Shown piece after piece: positions 3,618-11,934 of a DNA stretch of 37,452 nucleotides. The notes below the pieces were generated by a model that saw only the letters and a program-made list of their open reading frames with translations, did not search any database and had not been told where the DNA came from. Source of the stretch: a virus; UHGV virus genome UHGV-1371557; one strand, 5' to 3'. How positions within the stretch are numbered: the first letter of the stretch is position 1; every line of letters begins with the position of its first letter. The position numbers and the translations under genes are program-made.

Positions 3618-4574
3618 TTAGAACCTGCGCTTTATGAGCTCTTCTACGTAGAAGATGCCCTGCACATCATCGAGCTTCACTGAATAGTCCTTGTATTGGC
3701 TATTGAGCGAATGGCACGTGATCTCGTTGGTTGCCTTGTCGTGGTTTACAACCTCCTTGAGGACTATACCCTCAGCTTCGGTGGCCACGACGCAGTAGGT
3801 GTCTCGTCTGCGCTTTATGCCATACTGCCAGTCGCTTTTAGGAAGGACACGGCAGAGAAGCACGTCACCATCGAGAAACGCTGTACTGGTGCCGTCGTCC
3901 ATACTGTCGCCAGACACTTCAAAGAGCAGGTAATCTCCTTTCAGTCTCTTGTCGATCAGCACAGGCATCGTCTGTTTGTCCTCTTCCCAGCATGGATCTC
4001 CGAAGCCAGATAGTGCTCCTGCTTTCGCGCGGTGTGGCACAAGAGGTATCTCCACCCAATCGCGGTCGCTACTTACGAGTGGGCGTGCGCTGTTCTCTGG
4101 GGAGGGCTGCGTGATGGGTGTATCGGCTTTCAGCATACTGCCTTCGCCAGTATCAAGCCATACTACATTAAGCGATGGGTAGGCTTTCTGTATCTTCTCT
4201 TTTGCGTCACGCCCGATACCTCGGCTAAGTCCAGAGATAAAAGAAGCCGATAATCCAGCCTTCAACAGGAAGTCACGAACAGAGGTAGCCTCGTTGGTTG
4301 CCTCTATATACTGAGTTATGCGTGATTTAATCGCATCTTTTGCTCCTATATCATCGGACAACATCATGTTTCCTTCTCCCGTAAGCAGCCACGATGCGGA
4401 GATGCCAAACATTTCGCTCCACTTAGCCGCCTGCGCCTTACCAAATGCCTTCTTACCCGTCATTAGAGAGTTGACATAAGCCTTGCTAACCCCGAGTTTC
4501 TCTGCGATGGCGCTCTGCGTAACGCCTTTGCTTCTGAAATATTCCGACAGATCAGAAAAAATTTTTTCGCTCAT
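3618..4574 (-). CDS. CI/LexA-like repressor: tandem XRE-type HTH domains plus a C-terminal S24 peptidase domain
   Basis: HTH 1: SAIAEKLGVSKAYVNSLMTGKK. HTH 2: SASFISGLSRGIGRD...WLDTGEG. S24 motifs: VSGDSM and a downstream Lys. The ORF-track N-terminal extension to 4808 was rejected. The start was set at the ATG at 4572-4574 (MSEKIF...). Confidence 0.85.
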   Translation of the reverse strand: MSEKIFSDLSEYFRSKGVTQSAIAEKLGVSKAYVNSLMTGKKAFGKAQAAKWSEMFGISASWLLTGEGNMMLSDDIGAKDAIKSRITQYIEATNEATSVRDFLLKAGLSASFISGLSRGIGRDAKEKIQKAYPSLNVVWLDTGEGSMLKADTPITQPSPENSARPLVSSDRDWVEIPLVPHRAKAGALSGFGDPCWEEDKQTMPVLIDKRLKGDYLLFEVSGDSMDDGTSTAFLDGDVLLCRVLPKSDWQYGIKRRRDTYCVVATEAEGIVLKEVVNHDKATNEITCHSLNSQYKDYSVKLDDVQGIFYVEELIKRRF

Positions 4575-4630
4575 AAGATGCAGTATTACAGCGTCTTGCA
4601 AAATAATTAATCCAAAAAGGCTGACGTTGA

Positions 4631-4662
4631 TTTGGTAAGTCAACCAAATTGGTTTACCTTTG
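4631..4662 (+). promoter_or_regulatory. Candidate Bacteroidetes sigma-A promoter (TTTG-N20-TACCTTTG) for the Cro-like/early-right transcript, inside a divergent operator region
   Basis: TTTG at 4631-4634 and TAccTTTG at 4655-4662 with a 20-nt spacer. Inverted repeats read from the sequence: GTTGA...TCAAC (4625-4643), CTTCAA-AG-TTGAAG (about 4696-4709) and CAAAATTTG. Confidence 0.5.
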
Positions 4663-4749
4663 TAGTGTAGTTCAAGAGGAGCTACAACAAACGCTTCAAA
4701 GTTGAAGCAAAATTTGAAACAAAGATAAAGATAATCTACCACCTGCAAT

Positions 4750-4965
4750 ATGGCTGAAATAAGAGTTCCTAAGAGCCACTCCGAAAAGTTAGATGAGCGC
4801 GCTCTCAAGATGCAGGCCGATTACCTGCGACTCCTGTCACAAGGCGGGGGAATTTGGCAGGTAAAGAAAGCCCTTGCCAAAAAATACAAGGTGTGTATGG
4901 TGACAGTCTACAGCACGCTCAAGCGAGCTGAGGAACTGAACGCAACCACCTCTGCCGAAGGCTAA
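4750..4965 (+). CDS. Cro-like small HTH regulator
   Basis: 71-aa ORF divergent from the repressor. Helix-turn-helix-like segment IWQVKKALAKKYKVCMVTVYSTLKRA. Confidence 0.55.
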   Translation: MAEIRVPKSHSEKLDERALKMQADYLRLLSQGGGIWQVKKALAKKYKVCMVTVYSTLKRAEELNATTSAEG

Positions 4966-5169
4966 GCCCTCCAGCGACCGCGATCTTTGACATACTTGAT
5001 ACAAACAATGGCGAAACGAAATAATCTGCGGGTGAAAGGCCCGCGCGTGATTAACCCATTGTAGTTAGTCTGTGGCCTATTGCGCACAGAGCGAAGCCGT
5101 GGAAGGCACGGAACACCCGAGGATCGCAATCCTCCTGACTACACATTAGTAACTACAAATAATACGGCT

Positions 5170-5388
5170 ATGAATAGAATAGGAATAGTGCTTGCCTATC
5201 TGGTTGCAGGCGCACTTTGCGTCTTGGGCTTCCTCGGCTTTCTGCTGATAGTCTCAGACACTGACCACCCAACAATGCCAGCAGTGAGCACCTCGGAGTT
5301 CCTCATCAAGAAGTTCGCAGGCGTTCTCCTCCTCGGCATCACCGTCTATACGTGGCGAGCTATCGAGCGCTACGGCAGACAACATTAG
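5170..5388 (+). CDS. Small membrane protein (2 TM)
   Basis: The ORF track gives 5080-5388. The first ATG with a hydrophobic N-terminus (MNRIGIVLAYLVAGALCVLGFLGFLLIV) is at 5170. Confidence 0.5.
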   Translation: MNRIGIVLAYLVAGALCVLGFLGFLLIVSDTDHPTMPAVSTSEFLIKKFAGVLLLGITVYTWRAIERYGRQH

Positions 5389-5416
5389 CGGATAGATTCT
5401 CTTTTCTTCAATCCGT

Positions 5417-5455
5417 GGCGCGGGCGATCAATTTAGAGGTTCCCCGCGCCCACAA
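5417..5455 (+). terminator. GC hairpin (GGCGCGGG / CCCGCGCC, 18-nt loop) followed after 8 nt by TTTTT. Weak terminator candidate.
   Basis: Read from the sequence. It lies 29 nt after the stop of the 5170-5388 gene. Confidence 0.3.
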
Positions 5456-5495
5456 CGTTTTTAGTTTCCATATGATTTGATTTGTTTATTAGATC

Positions 5496-5543
5496 GTGAG
5501 GACGAACTCGGGAGAGCAAGGCCTCACAAAAAAGTACGCAATA
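5496..5543 (+). repeat. Hairpin A: stem GTGAGG/CCTCAC, 20-nt loop ACGAACTCGGGAGAGCAAGG, then ACAAAAAAGTACGCAAT
   Basis: Read directly from the sequence. It is the paralogue of hairpin B at 5745-5790. Confidence 0.6.
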
Positions 5544-5544
5544 T

Positions 5545-5610
5545 GTCGGTGCGTCGGGCGCAGGCCCCCTGATGCTACTTATGCCTTCATCAGCTCGGAG
5601 GCGCACCGAC
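5545..5610 (+). repeat. Nested inverted repeat: outer 9-bp stem GTCGGTGCG/CGCACCGAC enclosing an inner 6-bp stem CTGATG/CATCAG
   Basis: Read directly from the sequence, in a non-coding stretch. Confidence 0.5.
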
Positions 5611-5744
5611 CAAAGTAGAATAATAGACCGCTATTTGGGCGGTCATCCCACCACGGCTGAAAGGCTGTGGTAACATACTCTTATTGTTGTCCAGCCAGCC
5701 CGTGAGGGTGTAGCTGGAATAGTGATGAATGAACGAACGATCTA

Positions 5745-5790
5745 AGCGCGACAAACCCGAGAGGGCAAGGCGCGCTACAAAGTAGACAAT
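5745..5790 (+). repeat. Hairpin B: stem AGCGCG/CGCGCT, 20-nt loop ACAAACCCGAGAGGGCAAGG, then ACAAAGTAGACAAT
   Basis: 16 of 20 loop positions are identical to hairpin A and the loop length is the same. The stems have unrelated sequences but both are perfect 6-bp helices. Confidence 0.6.
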
Positions 5791-5990
5791 CTCCAAAATC
5801 CAACAACTCCAATGATACAGATTTCCAACACCGATGCAGTAATCATCGCAAGGACGCTACGGATACTTGGGACTAAGAGCTACGAAAATAGCCCGAAGGA
5901 TCTCAAGTGGCAGAATGCGATACGCAATGCAAAGCTCATGGCGAGGAAGCTCACACGCCACCTCGAACGAGCCTCAATAGATACATAGAT

Positions 5991-6281
5991 ATGGACACGG
6001 CAATCATCCTCAGCCAAGGAGAGCTCAAGGCTCTCATCTCATCAGCAGTGTGCGAGGCACTAAGCAAGCACACGGAGATAGCAAAGCCCACCGAGAGATA
6101 TATCGCAGGTCGTGAGAAGATACACGGCTTCCTCGGTATCAAGTCAAGAGGCGCGCTTAACTCAAGAATAGCAAAGTACCCCAGCGCCTTCCTGCAGGAT
6201 GAGCGCTTTACTCTCATCCTCGACGTAGATGCGTATGCAGAGTGCCTACGCAGAGAGCAGAAGATGACAAGACAGAAGTAA
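5991..6281 (+). CDS. Excisionase/HTH_17-like DNA-binding protein
   Basis: 97 aa from the internal ATG at 5991. Pattern EKIHGFLGIKSRGALNSRIAKYPSAF...FTLILDVDAYAECL resembles excisionase-type HTH proteins. The upstream extension in the ORF track was rejected. Confidence 0.5.
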   Translation: MDTAIILSQGELKALISSAVCEALSKHTEIAKPTERYIAGREKIHGFLGIKSRGALNSRIAKYPSAFLQDERFTLILDVDAYAECLRREQKMTRQK

Positions 6282-6288
6282 CCACTAT

Positions 6289-6513
6289 ATGAAGCAAAGC
6301 AACATAGACGAGCTACGATTCAGACGGCTCAGCGATCAAGATTTAGACCAGCACATCCATAACCACCAGCTGTATCTCTCCTTCCTAACGAATAAGATGC
6401 GCGCTCGAAATAAGCGGGTCCGCTACTTCTCATTGAGGGCTGGAGATACAGCAGACAAGCTTATCCTGCTCAAGGAAGAGAAAGCTCGTAGGGCGCAGGA
6501 AGTAAAGCAATGA
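6289..6513 (+). CDS. Hypothetical protein
   Basis: 74-aa ORF tightly packed with its neighbours (ATGA overlap with the next gene). Confidence 0.5.
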   Translation: MKQSNIDELRFRRLSDQDLDQHIHNHQLYLSFLTNKMRARNKRVRYFSLRAGDTADKLILLKEEKARRAQEVKQ

Positions 6514-6740
6514 AGAAGATAGACCGACGCGAGGTGATAGGAGCGATACAGCGACACCTCCAGCTACGCAAGGAAGAAAGACGGCTGCCGCTGATCGTAC
6601 TTAAAGAGCAACTATCCTCGGTAGTCGGCTATGGCTTCGATACTCTCCGCCCTATCCTGCTGGACCTCTATCAAGAAGGTCTACTGATCTCTGGGCGCAC
6701 ACTCAATTCTACCTACTTCACACTCCCAGAATATGTGTAA
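6510..6740 (+). CDS. Hypothetical protein, possibly a winged-helix DNA binder
   Basis: 76-aa ORF whose start overlaps the previous stop and whose end overlaps the next start. Confidence 0.5.
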   Translation: MKKIDRREVIGAIQRHLQLRKEERRLPLIVLKEQLSSVVGYGFDTLRPILLDLYQEGLLISGRTLNSTYFTLPEYV

Positions 6741-8004
6741 GCATAAATACATACCACTCGACATCTTCGCCATGCAGGACGCTAAGATAGAAGCACTGAC
6801 TGCAGAGCATGGGATGGCGGGCTGGGGCATCTACACCGCCCTCCTCCTAAAGCTCGCACAGCAAGATGAAGATGGGTACACTTATCCAAACAACGCCAAG
6901 CGCCTGGCGAACATCCTGCCAAAGCGCCCAAGGGCGGAAGTCGTGCGATCCACTATTGAGGACTTCGGTCTGTTTGAGATCGCCACCGATGAGGATGGAG
7001 TAGAGTACTTCTACTCACCACGCCTCACCTCACATCTCTCAACTCTTGGCGGTGCAGATAAAAAGCAAGGCGAAGAAGCTGCACCGAAGAAGCGCAGCTA
7101 CAATGTAAGTCAAGCGGTCAAAGAAGGCTTAGATAGAGCTCGCGAGGCTAAGCGCAATCGCTCAAAAGTAGAAGATGAAAGTAGAAAAGTAGAGAGCAAA
7201 GTAGAAACGAAAGTAGAGACAAAAGCAGTCAAAAGTAGAAAAGTAGAGAAAGCAGAAATGAAAGTAGACGAAAGTAGAGAAGGCGTTTCTACTTTGCCCT
7301 CTACTTTCAGCTCTACTTTGGGGGGGACTATAGGGGGGGTAAATACCCCCCTAAAAGAAAAAGATAAAATAGAAGATGAAAGTCTCCCCCAAACCCCCAG
7401 GGGGGGCTTTGAGAGCGCGCAGAAAGAAATAGATGCGATAGAGGACCCTGCGCTTCGCGCTATGGTTAGCTCGCTAATGTATCCGAACTCAGATATGCGA
7501 GACTTCGGTAAGGTGTGGCGAGCACTCTATGAAGAGGCGACTGCTGGTGATGATGGCTTCGCTAAGTCAAGCATCCTATCGCAGGCCATATGTAGAGACG
7601 GGCATGAGCTGTTTGTTGCGCTGATGCCCGACCGACCAGATGGGAATGCCAAGGAGCGTCCCACGGTGGCGACCACACTAAACGCAATAGCCCAATTCCG
7701 AAAGATGATGGAAGAAGCCAAGGCATCCACCTTCCTACGAGGCAATCGAGCCATGGCGAGTCTGTCGTGGCTTGTCAAGCCAGATAACTTCGCTAAGGTC
7801 GTGGAGGGGTGCTATCGAGACAACACTGCCTCCAAGCCGTCATCTCCTCCTCCTGCATCCCAGAACTACTCAAACCATATGTGGGATGAAGTCAAGGCTT
7901 CGCAGGCGCAGGCCGAAGATAGCGAGGAGATGAAGGCATACAAGGCTTCTGTACTCAAGATAACACGAAGAGAAGGCGAACAGCAAAAAAAACAACAGCA
8001 ATGA
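6733..8004 (+). CDS. Replication initiator/replisome organiser (N-terminal phage-replication-initiator-like domain; iterons lie inside the coding sequence)
   Basis: 423-aa ORF. The N-terminus (IPLDIFAMQDAKIEALTAEHGMAGWGIYTALLLKLAQ) resembles phage replication initiator N-domains. It contains the iteron array, and its stop overlaps the start of the DnaC-like loader gene. Confidence 0.7.
   Translation: MCKHKYIPLDIFAMQDAKIEALTAEHGMAGWGIYTALLLKLAQQDEDGYTYPNNAKRLANILPKRPRAEVVRSTIEDFGLFEIATDEDGVEYFYSPRLTSHLSTLGGADKKQGEEAAPKKRSYNVSQAVKEGLDRAREAKRNRSKVEDESRKVESKVETKVETKAVKSRKVEKAEMKVDESREGVSTLPSTFSSTLGGTIGGVNTPLKEKDKIEDESLPQTPRGGFESAQKEIDAIEDPALRAMVSSLMYPNSDMRDFGKVWRALYEEATAGDDGFAKSSILSQAICRDGHELFVALMPDRPDGNAKERPTVATTLNAIAQFRKMMEEAKASTFLRGNRAMASLSWLVKPDNFAKVVEGCYRDNTASKPSSPPPASQNYSNHMWDEVKASQAQAEDSEEMKAYKASVLKITRREGEQQKKQQQ
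7166..7406. repeat. Candidate origin of replication: at least 9 direct AAGTAGA iterons (7166-7278), 3 inverted TCTACTT copies (7288-7318), then G7/C6 inverted runs flanking a 32-nt A-rich tract (7320-7406)
   Basis: Iteron start positions are 7166, 7179, 7187, 7199, 7211, 7233, 7241, 7262 and 7272, mostly 8-13 nt apart. The inverted copies are at 7288, 7300 and 7312. Next come GGGGGGG-ACTATA-GGGGGGG-TAAATA-CCCCCC, an AT-rich stretch, CCCCC-AAA-CCCCC-A-GGGGGGG. The whole array stays in frame within the initiator gene. Confidence 0.7.
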
Positions 8005-11646: not shown

Positions 11647-11934
11647 ATGGATAAGATAAGCACATATTTCATCTCTTTTTTCGTCGGCTACGTGACTGTC
11701 TTCTTTGTCGTTGTTATTCCTCTGGTCGTGTATTACGTGTACACGGTTAGGGTTTACTACGACAAGAAAGACGATCGGCTGATGGACGAGCTTTTCAAAG
11801 AGCTAATCGCACGAAGGGACGCGGAGCGAGAGGCGAGGTGCCAACGCGCGGAGATAGAACGGCTCGCCAAGAAGGTAGCCACCCTCGAGGGGGAGCTGTC
11901 CGCCCTCCGTGCAAATTCATCTAAACAGAAATAA
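11647..11934 (+). CDS. Hypothetical small TM/coiled-coil protein
   Basis: 95-aa ORF. Confidence 0.5.
   Translation: MDKISTYFISFFVGYVTVFFVVVIPLVVYYVYTVRVYYDKKDDRLMDELFKELIARRDAEREARCQRAEIERLAKKVATLEGELSALRANSSKQK

Follow-up and report, generated by a model that had tools for sequence, protein, structure and literature searches.

In the rightward early operon of this phage, about 600 bp separate a small membrane-protein gene from the genes for replication, and a sequence-only reading took them for one long, densely structured stretch with no convincing open reading frame (ORF). What kind of element could hold such a place, and does it act as RNA, as DNA or as protein? Within the window (the whole stretch of 37,452 nucleotides analysed here), comparison with relatives indicates that 5395-5983 is a removable cassette of an oral Bacteroidales phage, made of about 420 bases of hairpin modules followed by a 58-codon gene. 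The phage is temperate, of siphovirus type and from the human mouth. Its host is placed to order level only (Bacteroidales), because two scans of 185,579 species genomes returned 0 matches and then 2 chance matches, a host search in a phage DNA collection gave no match, and TerL identity was at most 49% to cultured Bacteroides phages and 53-55% to named Bacteroides prophages.

The end of the stretch is coding. ORF58 (5812-5988, + strand) specifies a basic, probably helical protein of 58 amino acids, is intact in 16 of 16 distinct relatives and distributes its variable sites over the codon positions as 5/2/14, the same pattern as the flanking genes. On these comparative grounds it is a genuine gene, an orphan of the window phage's lineage; the only database relatives are proteins at least 90% identical to it. 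Pfam and PHROGs hold no family for any ORF of the region, ORF58 included, nor for the 72-aa two-helix membrane protein encoded just upstream (5170-5388, + strand; variable sites 21/9/35). The 68-aa ORF of the minus strand (5590-5796), already suspected of being spurious, carries stops or frameshifts in 15 of 16 relatives, has codon-position counts of 12/12/13 and does not behave as protein-coding. ORF 5572-5673 is non-coding as well (10/11/11). The N-terminal extension of the ORF at 5907, also doubted earlier, is spurious, because relatives without the cassette fuse the stop of the upstream gene directly to the ATG at 5991. Since ORF58 is real and these other frames are not, the true non-coding span is 5389-5811, about 423 nt. 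The earlier picture of some 600 bp without an ORF holds for this span and fails for the last 177 nt, and the conserved coding frame that would have spoken against it exists at 5812-5988 only. Taken together, the comparisons support the view that 5389-5811 is a conserved structured element of an early P_R-type operon, neither junk nor a hidden long ORF.

The non-coding part is a modular array of X hairpins, Y hairpins and hairpins of variable sequence, all on the + strand. An X hairpin has a 6-bp outer stem, a 5x5 internal loop, a 3-bp stem and a GNGA tetraloop, and is trailed by an A-rich box, A/CAAAGTAGACA (also given as A/CAAAGUAGACA); Y hairpins carry the loop AAUUUAGA. Every structure named in the sequence-only reading was found in its place. 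The GC hairpin with a downstream T5 (hairpin 5415-5453, T5 5458-5462) is module Y1 (5415-5462), whose stem of about 10 bp has one bulge, whose loop contains CAAUUUAGAG and which is followed by AACG and the T5. Compensatory changes among close relatives (C-G / A-T / T-A) preserve the Y1 stem, and a U.G wobble in it is conserved. The U-run varies from T5 to T8 and is limited to the closest relatives, a homologue in the group of 82% identity being without it, so that Y1 is terminator-like only in the subgroup of the window. A scan for terminators gave none on the + strand of the region, and A-rich boxes, not U-tracts, trail the X hairpins.

Next comes module X_A (5496-5543), GUGAGG-ACGAA-CUC-GGGA-GAG-CAAGG-CCUCAC with box AAAAAAGUACGCAAUA, which the search model R1 matched at 46.7 bits (E = 7e-12). 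Hairpin C (5545-5624) contains the nested inverted repeat of the earlier reading, with a 9-bp closing stem (5545-5553/5602-5610), inner hairpins including the 6-bp pair CTGATG/CATCAG, and box CAAAGUAGAAUAAU at 5611-5624. It is dispensable, because one relative (L006) has a 50-nt deletion within it; an apparent hypervariable loop in hairpin C was an artefact of that single deletion. Module Y2 (5626-5644), GACCGC-UAUUUGG-GCGGUC, corresponds to the earlier ACCGC-N7-GCGGT stem-loop and is a degenerate copy of a Y type, NNCCGC-AAUUNNGA-GCGGNN, seen in relatives. Beyond the structures listed before lies hairpin Z (5651-5670), CCACGGC-UGAAAG-GCUGUGG with one G.U pair, whose position and pairing are conserved while its sequence is free; a conserved AACAUACU stands directly 3' of it. 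Module X' (5691-5717) places an outer stem CCAGC/GCUGG around CCC-GUGA-GGG and has no box, and homologous X' units in relatives are partial R1 matches. The array ends with X_B (5745-5790), AGCGCG-ACAAA-CCC-GAGA-GGG-CAAGG-CGCGCU with box ACAAAGUAGACAAU (R1 66 bits, E = 2e-17), 22 nt before the ATG of ORF58. A 48-nt island at X_B is conserved at 85% in the 82% group. The two X modules also appear as a 22-nt repeat, with copies 249 nt apart that form the loops of the hairpins at 5496-5527 and 5745-5776 (2 matches against 0.00 expected), and the X motif occurs nowhere else in the window.

Folding and covariation both bear on whether these modules act as RNA. Fold prediction on both strands gave structure beyond that of shuffled sequences: the + strand of 5389-5811 folds at -150 kcal/mol against -123 +/- 6 for shuffles (z = -4.44; 0 of 100 shuffles as good), and the minus strand reaches z = -3.31. 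The inner helix of X reaches 99.4% pairing, and each of its 3 pairs has CG<->UA swaps. The outer helix shows compensatory changes at 5 of 6 pairs, and the covariation score of X was reached by 0 of 500 shuffles and collapsed in slid registers. From an independent MAFFT alignment, RNAalifold recovered X_A, Y2 (with a CG/GC swap) and X_B. In + strand stems, G.U outnumbers A.C by 37 to 5 in Y and by 17 to 11 in X, a bias that for X alone is weak. The X loop is invariant apart from its second base (GAGA, GGGA, GUGA, GCGA), which points to RNA. Variation across the region is lowest at the boxes, which thermodynamic prediction makes moderately single-stranded, at a mean unpaired probability of 0.61 against a background of 0.50.

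The array does not correspond to a catalogued RNA. No Rfam family matches the region at E<=10; Rfam at gathering score and at E<=10 returned only the upstream DUF2693 RNA and, inside that RNA, a chance group II fragment. Mimicry of the 23S sarcin-ricin loop was considered since X units of relatives share CGAGAGGAC, and was rejected on the free variation of the second loop base. The array is not known to resemble CRISPR-repeat mimics or a CsrA-type GGA sponge; GGA is not consistently present.

The distribution of the motif is broad but orderly. X occurs in 1-5 copies per phage in more than 60 metagenomic phages: the R1 scan gave 90 X matches (56 distinct) in 61 sources, and independent scans added 32 and 64. 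In every intact contig with enough upstream DNA the array lies 0.3-1.7 kb downstream of a DUF2693 RNA, right after a small membrane-protein gene of divergent sequence and on the transcribed strand, and X matches are co-oriented with the DUF2693 RNA in the loci whose strands were compared. In some relatives as many as five X units follow one another within 450 nt. Phages whose flanking DNA is only about 70-80% identical share the same order of modules, and the internal unit X_A-box-Y2-Z, which contains no ORF, is kept in phages whose flanking genes differ. From the end of the terminal box to the ATG of the next, variable gene there are always 19-29 nt, at least five unrelated genes having been seen in that place, and some phages have such a module ahead of two successive genes.

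The cassette is also optional. Array and ORF58 together (5395-5983, + strand) are absent from three relatives (L007, L008 and L017) that are otherwise about 95% identical to the window phage. The empty site of L007 and L008 reads CGGATA|CGTAGATATG, and L017 has a different junction; the boundaries of the cassette are ambiguous because a 4-bp direct repeat, GATA, stands at 5391-5394 and 5980-5983. Three more relatives (L024, L030 and L031) lack most of the array. In L024 and L030 the deletion joins the CCACAAAG of Y1 to the CCACAAAG of X_B, and L031 has a further junction; deletion junctions fall in these repeated CCACAAAG boxes. All six keep the DUF2693 RNA and the downstream genes. This argues against a need for the array of the kind a nut site has, and a nutR-tR1 analogue, one proposal of the sequence-only reading, is not supported as an essential element. 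Nor is the other, an antisense small RNA (sRNA) locus like oop/cII, supported: neither strand has a canonical promoter within 5389-5990, and the strand-specific signals sit on the sense strand. What stands of the proposed regulatory RNA leader or sRNA is a conserved structured element on the transcribed strand. The same sense-strand signals and the lack of a minus-strand promoter in the region speak against a type I toxin-antitoxin pair, as does the persistence of the membrane-protein gene in relatives without the array.

Transcription would enter from upstream. A P_R-type promoter of the Bacteroidetes -33/-7 type, TTTG-20 nt-TACCTTTG, was found by motif match at 4631-4661 (+ strand), and the window has five perfect TTTG-N19/20-TACCTTTG promoters outside 5389-5990. 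Within 5389-5990, neither strand has a canonical -33/-7 promoter (TTTG...TAnnTTTG), and a sigma-70-type scan found no site. An operator of the cI/Cro type was rejected for the boxes: the palindrome GCTTCAAAGTTGAAGC at 4694-4709 shares CAAAGT with them, but the box is non-palindromic and constant across phages. The array's constant upstream partner, the DUF2693 RNA (RF02956), lies outside the region at 4982-5144 (+ strand; full-length match, 167.8 bits against a gathering score of 81.3). It and the DUF2693-FD RNA (RF02926) were described by Weinberg et al. 2017 (PMC5737381). The array belongs to the same phage lineage and operon as the DUF2693 RNA, which likewise ends in a closing stem, with a leader of the ACAUUAG type behind it and an ATG some 25 nt further on. 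The RF02956 model nevertheless finds nothing in 5389-5990, even at E<=10, and RF02926 has no match at E<=10 in 4700-6400 of the window or in 4100-5400 of a relative (L103). The DUF2693-FD RNA is a three-way junction, a stem and two hairpins around a central loop (PMC9756865), whereas X is a single interrupted hairpin.

We propose, with a probability of roughly 0.4, that the array consists of leader modules of the P_R transcript, acting in cis as RNA and doubling as recombination joints. Read within the P_R transcript, the modules would exert their effect in cis, on the polycistronic early RNA to which they belong: a stable hairpin would close off the RNA upstream of it, and the box with its G-poor, A/C-rich leader of fixed length would present the start codon of the next accessory gene, here ORF58, in single-stranded form. 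Translation in Bacteroidales is not led by a Shine-Dalgarno (SD) sequence, and promoters there are unusual; a single-stranded start codon is what SD-less translation would need. Processing may in addition leave the hairpin as a protected 5' or 3' end. X_A, hairpin C and X' are not followed by an ORF, however, which counts against this leader model, and such internal modules, together with the rows of up to five X units, make a pure gene-start role insufficient. The moderate single-strandedness predicted for the box and the weak wobble bias of X taken alone count against the model as well. Conservation of the loops (GNGA and AAUUUAGA) and of the box, which hardly varies, suggests that a specific partner recognises the modules, more than that they insulate in a generic way.

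An unlikely alternative is processive antitermination. The DUF2693 RNA would supply a boxA-like strand with hairpins, the X-box units would be additional places where a phage or host factor loads or is retained, and polymerase would thereby read through the long hairpin-rich untranslated stretch and past any Rho-dependent or intrinsic stop ahead of the genes for recombination and replication. In lambda, nutR-tR1 joins boxA and a boxB hairpin to a terminator, and rrn leaders have the order boxB-boxA. The array likewise comes after a cro-like gene and before the delayed-early genes of recombination and replication, sets a hairpin beside a conserved single strand as nut sites and rrn leaders do, and includes, after the first genes, the GC hairpin Y1 with its T-run, which is T5-T8 in the subgroup of the window. 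Its 3-bp stem and GNGA loop make a short hairpin with a loop of the GNRA-class fold, as in boxB, with a stem shorter than that of boxB and enclosed in a second helix. It is never seen without the upstream DUF2693 RNA, whose conserved single-stranded 5' end CGATCTTTGACATACTTGATA resembles boxA; within CGATCTTTGACAT, 10 of the first 13 bases match the annotated boxA CGCTCTTTCACAA (PMC7665894 supplement). Long untranslated arrays need boxA protection from Rho, and the boxA tables hold no entry for Bacteroidales (PMC7665894). The nut-like-looking element is, however, that RNA at 4982-5144 and not the reported region: the only boxA-like string lies at 4982-4995, the lambda consensus CGCUCUUA / GCUCUUUAACAA does not occur beside the array hairpins, and the A-rich boxes have nothing of the half of boxA that reads GCUCUUU. 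Neither an N-like nor a Q-like protein was identified, and the array is dispensable in the six relatives above and repeated 1-5 times. We know of no nut or put system with up to five tandem sites. Doubtful to a similar degree is a role in trans, as RNAs cut from the operon transcript in the manner of DicF or as a multi-site RNA sponge. The unit would be a hairpin, a single-stranded box serving as seed or protein site, and the closing hairpins Y and Z, directed at host or phage mRNAs or titrating an RNA-binding protein. A box that is most conserved beside stems that covary is the pattern of an sRNA seed; the copy number and the conservation of the ORF-less X_A-box-Y2-Z unit in changing surroundings fit as well. 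Like DicF, the array is a structured non-coding RNA inside a polycistronic early or immunity transcript of a prophage, with no promoter of its own; it differs in that its units are multi-copy and modular. A DUF2693 protein, of a family assigned to the Sm-related SH3-fold WYL superfamily (PMC4012209), is encoded by many of the phages that have the array but not by the window phage. The units are bounded by neither a canonical promoter nor a hairpin-adjacent U-tract, and no conserved target was found elsewhere in the window. In the phage's own rep mRNA, the three inverted iterons UCUACUUUG are complementary to the box, but this complementarity is not general, because the box is unchanged in phages with unrelated iterons.

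The iterons raise the further idea, which we hold to be highly improbable, that the boxes at 5611-5620 (after hairpin C) and 5778-5787 (after X_B) are outlying iterons in the DNA, bound by the initiator and linked to the origin by looping, handcuffing or titration. The window has 14 copies of the 8-mer AAAGTAGA, where 1.07 would be expected; 12 of them form the iteron cluster at 7165-7319 inside the initiator gene (6733-8004), and the other two are these boxes, with flanks that fit the iteron consensus. A related replicon type uses AAGGTAGA, and the recurrence of an origin iteron away from the origin is known from P4 crr and from the alpha/beta origins of R6K. But phages whose iterons read ATGGGACA, ACCTTACT or GCTGTAAA keep boxes AAAGTAGACA / AAAGTGAACA; the box does not covary with the replicon, as an iteron should, and remains constant within hairpin-flanked, strand-specific, RNA-like modules. 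There are phages that share the replicon yet lack the array, and hairpin covariation, GNGA loop and G.U bias are features of a single strand. Least probable is functionless debris, leftovers of gene starts and ends from repeated illegitimate or homologous recombination at a hyperplastic genome spot. Its variable presence, its several independent deletion junctions and the 50-nt deletion in hairpin C would fit, but compensatory changes keep both X helices paired across more than 56 distinct sequences, module order is conserved, and variation is lowest at the boxes.

The second half of our proposal, leader modules that are also recombination joints, follows from the repetition of the modules, by which units and whole gene cassettes could be gained or lost. 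The closest parallel is with the PeSL elements of T4-type phages, mobile regulatory cassettes that combine an early promoter with a terminator stem-loop (PMC2839356, Arbiol et al. 2010; PMC4122927, Comeau et al. 2014). Both place repeated stem-loop motifs between small accessory early genes, and here too the indels of close relatives start and end in the repeated motif, which marks it as a point of genetic exchange. In contrast to PeSLs, the array has no promoter motif and no U-tract beside the X hairpin; the X hairpin is conserved in its internal architecture, with GNGA loop and internal loop, and comes with an A-rich box, and the array belongs to a temperate, siphovirus-type phage of a Bacteroidales host. 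Repeated regulatory hairpins may thus play the part in a temperate Bacteroidales phage that PeSLs play in T4-type phages, that of driving the exchange of cassettes.

Beyond this phage, X represents a new RNA motif family that covariation supports and Rfam does not list, confined to phages with a DUF2693 RNA and always downstream of it. Its fixed geometry to start codons is directly testable with reporters, and near-identical phages with, without and with part of the array provide ready-made controls. To our knowledge, almost nothing is known of early-gene timing in temperate Bacteroidales phages, and no antitermination system has previously been described for phages of the host phylum; were the nut-like reading true, this would be the first. 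It is tempting to speculate, although we think it decidedly improbable, that the DUF2693 RNA and the X/Y array together form an unrecognised RNA control system of early transcription or translation in Bacteroidota phages, either a nut/put-like platform of processive antitermination with several sites that reinforce one another or a multi-site RNA that captures an RNA-binding factor of the host. The orphan Rfam motif DUF2693 would thereby gain a first function.

The non-coding part of the region at 5389-5990 is strongly structured. Every hairpin that the sequence-only reading had named is present where that reading placed it, and between 5389 and 5811 both strands fold better than shuffled sequence: the plus-strand RNA reaches -150 kcal/mol, whereas dinucleotide shuffles give -123 +/- 6 (z = -4.44), and for the minus strand z is -3.31. 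The structures are genuine and significant. The description of some 600 nt of non-coding DNA does not hold, however, as a gene takes up 177 nt of it and the actual non-coding span is 5389-5811. The frame of this gene, ORF58 (58 aa, 5812-5988), is uninterrupted in all 16 distinct close relatives, and its variable sites are distributed over the codon positions (5/2/14) much as in the genes on either side (21/9/35 and 5/5/21). The protein is an orphan restricted to this lineage: a search of 5.8 billion sequences gave only proteins at least 90% identical to it. The earlier statement that no convincing ORF exists is thus wrong for 5812-5988 and right for two other frames, the minus-strand 68-aa ORF, which is spurious and broken in 15 of 16 relatives, and 5572-5673, which shows no codon bias in the codon-position test in relatives.

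Comparison of many phages resolves the non-coding span into modules. The X module consists of an outer stem (about 6 bp), an ACRAA-like 5' internal strand, a 3-bp stem with a G-N-G-A cap, a CAAGG-like 3' internal strand and the closing stem, followed by a conserved A-rich box with the consensus A/CAAAGU(A/G/U)(G/A)ACA. X' keeps the core of X but has a short outer stem and no box, Y is a GC stem enclosing the loop AAUUNNGA, and Z is a hairpin conserved in position and pairing, free in sequence and followed by AACAUACU. The window carries, in order, Y1 (5415-5453, then T5), X_A with its box (hairpin 5496-5527), hairpin C with its box (hairpin 5545-5610), Y2 (5626-5644), Z (5651-5670), X' (5691-5717) and X_B (hairpin 5745-5776, box 5777-5790), from which a 22-nt leader runs to the ATG of ORF58. 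Over 12 nt, the Z hairpin (CGGCUGAAAGGC, 5651-5670) is 92% identical to the first hairpin of the upstream DUF2693 RNA (CGGGUGAAAGGC, 5026-5044), which could reflect partial duplication or chance. In the related contig L103 (5020-5170, plus strand), and also in L113, L115 and L109, a structured element some 150 nt long, closed by GGGCGTGGCC...GGCCACGCCC and followed by the same AAAGTGAACAACATTA box, separates an X unit from the gene after it. It has no Rfam match at E<=10. This element may be another RNA of this system that has yet to be catalogued, and hairpin C may be its short counterpart.

In the window, a covariance model (R1) built from 15 X units chosen by hand picks out the two X units and nothing else (E = 2e-17 and 7e-12). 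It also gives 90 matches (56 distinct) in 61 sources, with more in loci that were recovered independently, by pattern scans of viral and metagenome collections. Pairing in the inner helix of the model-fitted alignment reaches 99.4%, each of its three pairs showing CG<->UA exchanges, and the outer helix has double changes at five of six pairs. None of 500 shuffles reached the covariation score, and when the partners are slid by 1-3 columns pairing falls to 32-53%, against 85% in register. When 20 whole units were aligned independently with MAFFT, RNAalifold recovered X_A, Y2 and X_B, with 12 covarying pairs. In loci where strands were compared, X matches have the orientation of the DUF2693 RNA and of the genes around them, and on this sense strand the tetraloop is always GNGA. 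Y hairpins have 37 G.U pairs against 5 A.C mismatches and X hairpins 17 against 11, U.G is conserved at two stem positions, and neither strand of the region contains a canonical promoter. Together these features point to signals carried by sense-strand RNA made from P_R, the rightward early promoter. X units reading UCC-GAGA-GGA-C (L025 1900-1935 and other relatives) contain in their inner hairpin the 9-mer CGAGAGGAC, also found in the universally conserved sarcin-ricin loop of 23S rRNA; mimicry of that loop is unlikely because the second loop base varies freely across the X family.

The window is a temperate phage or prophage. Its S24/HTH cI-like repressor (minus strand, ORF 3618-4808, real start near 4581) is divergent from a 71-aa HTH gene (4750-4965). 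A replication initiator (6733-8004) precedes a DnaC-like loader, SSB and resolvase, and late genes include TerL, portal and capsid. P_R is a Bacteroidetes-type promoter, with TTTG at 4631, 20 nt and TACCTTTG at 4655-4662. It is one of five perfect TTTG-N19/20-TACCTTTG promoters in the window (4655, 20917 and 37203 on the plus strand, 21044 and 36653 on the minus strand); the other four lie elsewhere, with one divergent pair at the start of the late (terminase) operon and a second near the right end. Between the repressor and the early genes, the operator-like palindrome GGTAAGTCAACCAAATTGGTTTACC (4634-4658) overlaps the -33/-7 spacer, another, GCTTCAAAGTTGAAGC (4694-4709), lies downstream of the -7 box, and the -7-like motif TATCTTTG at 4727 (minus strand) may be the repressor promoter. 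The exact TerL sequence matches only human oral metagenome assemblies. In TerL, the closest cultured relatives, the Bacteroides phages Bacuni_F1/F4, are 49% identical, and the nearest named homologues in prophages, from Bacteroides spp., 53-55%. From these matches we infer an oral Bacteroidales host.

A full-length DUF2693 RNA (Rfam RF02956, an orphan motif; 4982-5144, 167.8 bits) lies directly upstream of a gene for a 72-aa two-helix membrane protein (5170-5388), which immediately precedes the region. Wherever upstream DNA suffices, this RNA or its 5' signature is found 0.3-1.7 kb upstream of X arrays on the same strand, the sole exception being L137, a contig riddled with frameshifts; the converse fails, as the RNA also occurs without an array. 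In every case examined the gene directly before the array encodes a small two-helix membrane protein of divergent sequence. Dozens of phage contigs carry X arrays, as do prophages on long metagenome contigs; Bacuni_F1 has none, and none was found in 185,579 species-representative genomes, where the two hits of one scan (17-26 bits) are chance. The region lies outside RF02956 and RF02926 (DUF2693-FD, a three-way junction), and no Rfam model matches it at E<=10.

The 5389-5990 region is an optional cassette. Among 32 viral contigs collected via the downstream 96-aa gene, 15 loci carry it, at 91-96% DNA identity across the interval, yet it is absent from L007, L008 and L017, whose flanks are equally close. 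The empty site of L007 and L008 reads from the stop of the membrane-protein gene through CGGATACGTAGAT to the ATG equivalent to 5991; the DNA they lack is 5395-5983, with the 4-bp repeat GATA at both ends in the window. L017 has a different junction. A group with 82-84% identity in the 96-aa protein holds about 2.3 kb in the same slot, beginning with a homologous non-coding array and including an Erf-like gene, an exonuclease and a 145-aa gene. Three of its members have lost the array, with junctions within the repeated string CCACAAAG. Because deletion junctions fall in repeated modules, these modules also act as recombination joints. Just 3' of the slot, a small Arg-rich protein of 74-78 aa (window 6289-6513, L025 4310-4546) is kept in both phage groups; it has no family assignment and is a candidate nucleic-acid-binding early protein.

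Boxes are of two classes. Terminal boxes end 19-29 nt upstream of the ATG of the next ORF, across an A/C-rich leader in which G is nearly absent. That ORF varies by phage (ORF58, an Erf-like protein, an SbcC-like ATPase and at least two unknown families), and some phages place a hairpin plus box ahead of two successive genes. Internal boxes have a Y hairpin or another X within a few bases. The DUF2693 RNA is laid out like a terminal unit, with a closing stem, ACAUUAGUAAC and an ATG about 25 nt on. We propose, as the most likely mechanism, that the modules work in cis on the polycistronic early transcript. Every stable hairpin would seal off upstream RNA and could double as a protective end after processing, and the box with its fixed-length unstructured leader would expose the start region of the next accessory gene. 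Such exposure would fit translation in Bacteroidetes, which relies on unstructured A-rich leaders and not on Shine-Dalgarno pairing. Against this model stand internal modules without an ORF, up to five tandem X units in some relatives, loops and a box conserved beyond the needs of generic insulation, and a predicted box accessibility that is only moderate (0.61 vs 0.50).

The array could instead be a nut-like antitermination platform, as X plus box shares the hairpin-plus-strand design of nut sites and boxA is known to be required to shield long untranslated arrays from Rho (PMC7665894). In favour, too, the conserved, unpaired 5' strand of the DUF2693 RNA (CGATCTTTGACAT / CGATCTTTGACATACTTGATA) matches the annotated boxA of the enterobacterium K. 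pneumoniae (CGCTCTTTCACAA) at 10 of the first 13 bases; the resemblance of CGATCTTTGACATACTTGATA to a NusB/NusE boxA suggests that this RNA could be a nut-like antitermination element. However, the array is dispensable and multi-copy, and its box is unlike boxA. Regulatory RNA, as first proposed for the region, is partly supported, whereas the analogies to oop and to an essential nut site are not. Trans-acting processed sRNAs, or a protein sponge, would suit the seed-like behaviour of the box and the DUF2693 proteins, of a family assigned to the Sm-related SH3-fold WYL superfamily (PMC4012209), that many array-bearing phages encode; but every unit lacks a recognisable promoter or terminator, and the window has no DUF2693 protein. 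Covariation contradicts a reading of the array as debris.

The boxes might also be DNA sites for the replication initiator. The window holds 14 copies of AAAGTAGA against 1.07 expected, and 12 of them, nine direct and three inverted, lie at 7165-7352 inside the initiator gene, a putative replication origin. There the iterons translate as a KVE-rich repeat in the initiator protein and are followed 3' by a G7...C6 palindrome and an A-rich stretch. The remaining two copies are the boxes at 5612 and 5779. Although these equal the origin 8-mer, the box does not covary with replicon type; the same box is kept in phages with four other iteron types. Because the box is constant across them, an initiator-site role would be at most secondary cross-talk in this replicon family. 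Related phages have the early regulatory region in common and yet differ in replicon, with at least five iteron/replicon types among them, including the iterons AAGGTAGA (L037, L041, L076, L080, L090), ACCTTACT (L053), ATGGGACA (L056, L073, L092) and GCTGTAAA (L058), which shows that regulation and replication modules are exchanged. Outside the origin, the best box complement (11697-11708, plus strand TGTCTTCTTTGT, one mismatch) lies 50 nt into a 95-aa gene (11647-11934), where R1 gives a weak minus-strand match (E = 0.35); it is probably chance.

Among known systems, lambda nutR-tR1 occupies the same position, but the array has no boxA, and relatives that have lost it while keeping the downstream genes argue against its necessity. 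In its working, as a mobile regulatory cassette, the array is most like the PeSL cassettes of T4-type phages, where repeated modules likewise serve as recombination joints (PMC2839356, PMC4122927), although the promoter is missing here. We file the array as a lineage-specific structured-RNA leader or cassette motif family with a putative regulatory role. As a new array of RNA motifs it is well supported; it accompanies an orphan Rfam RNA, belongs to phages that have received little study and, thanks to the natural deletion variants, can be tested directly.
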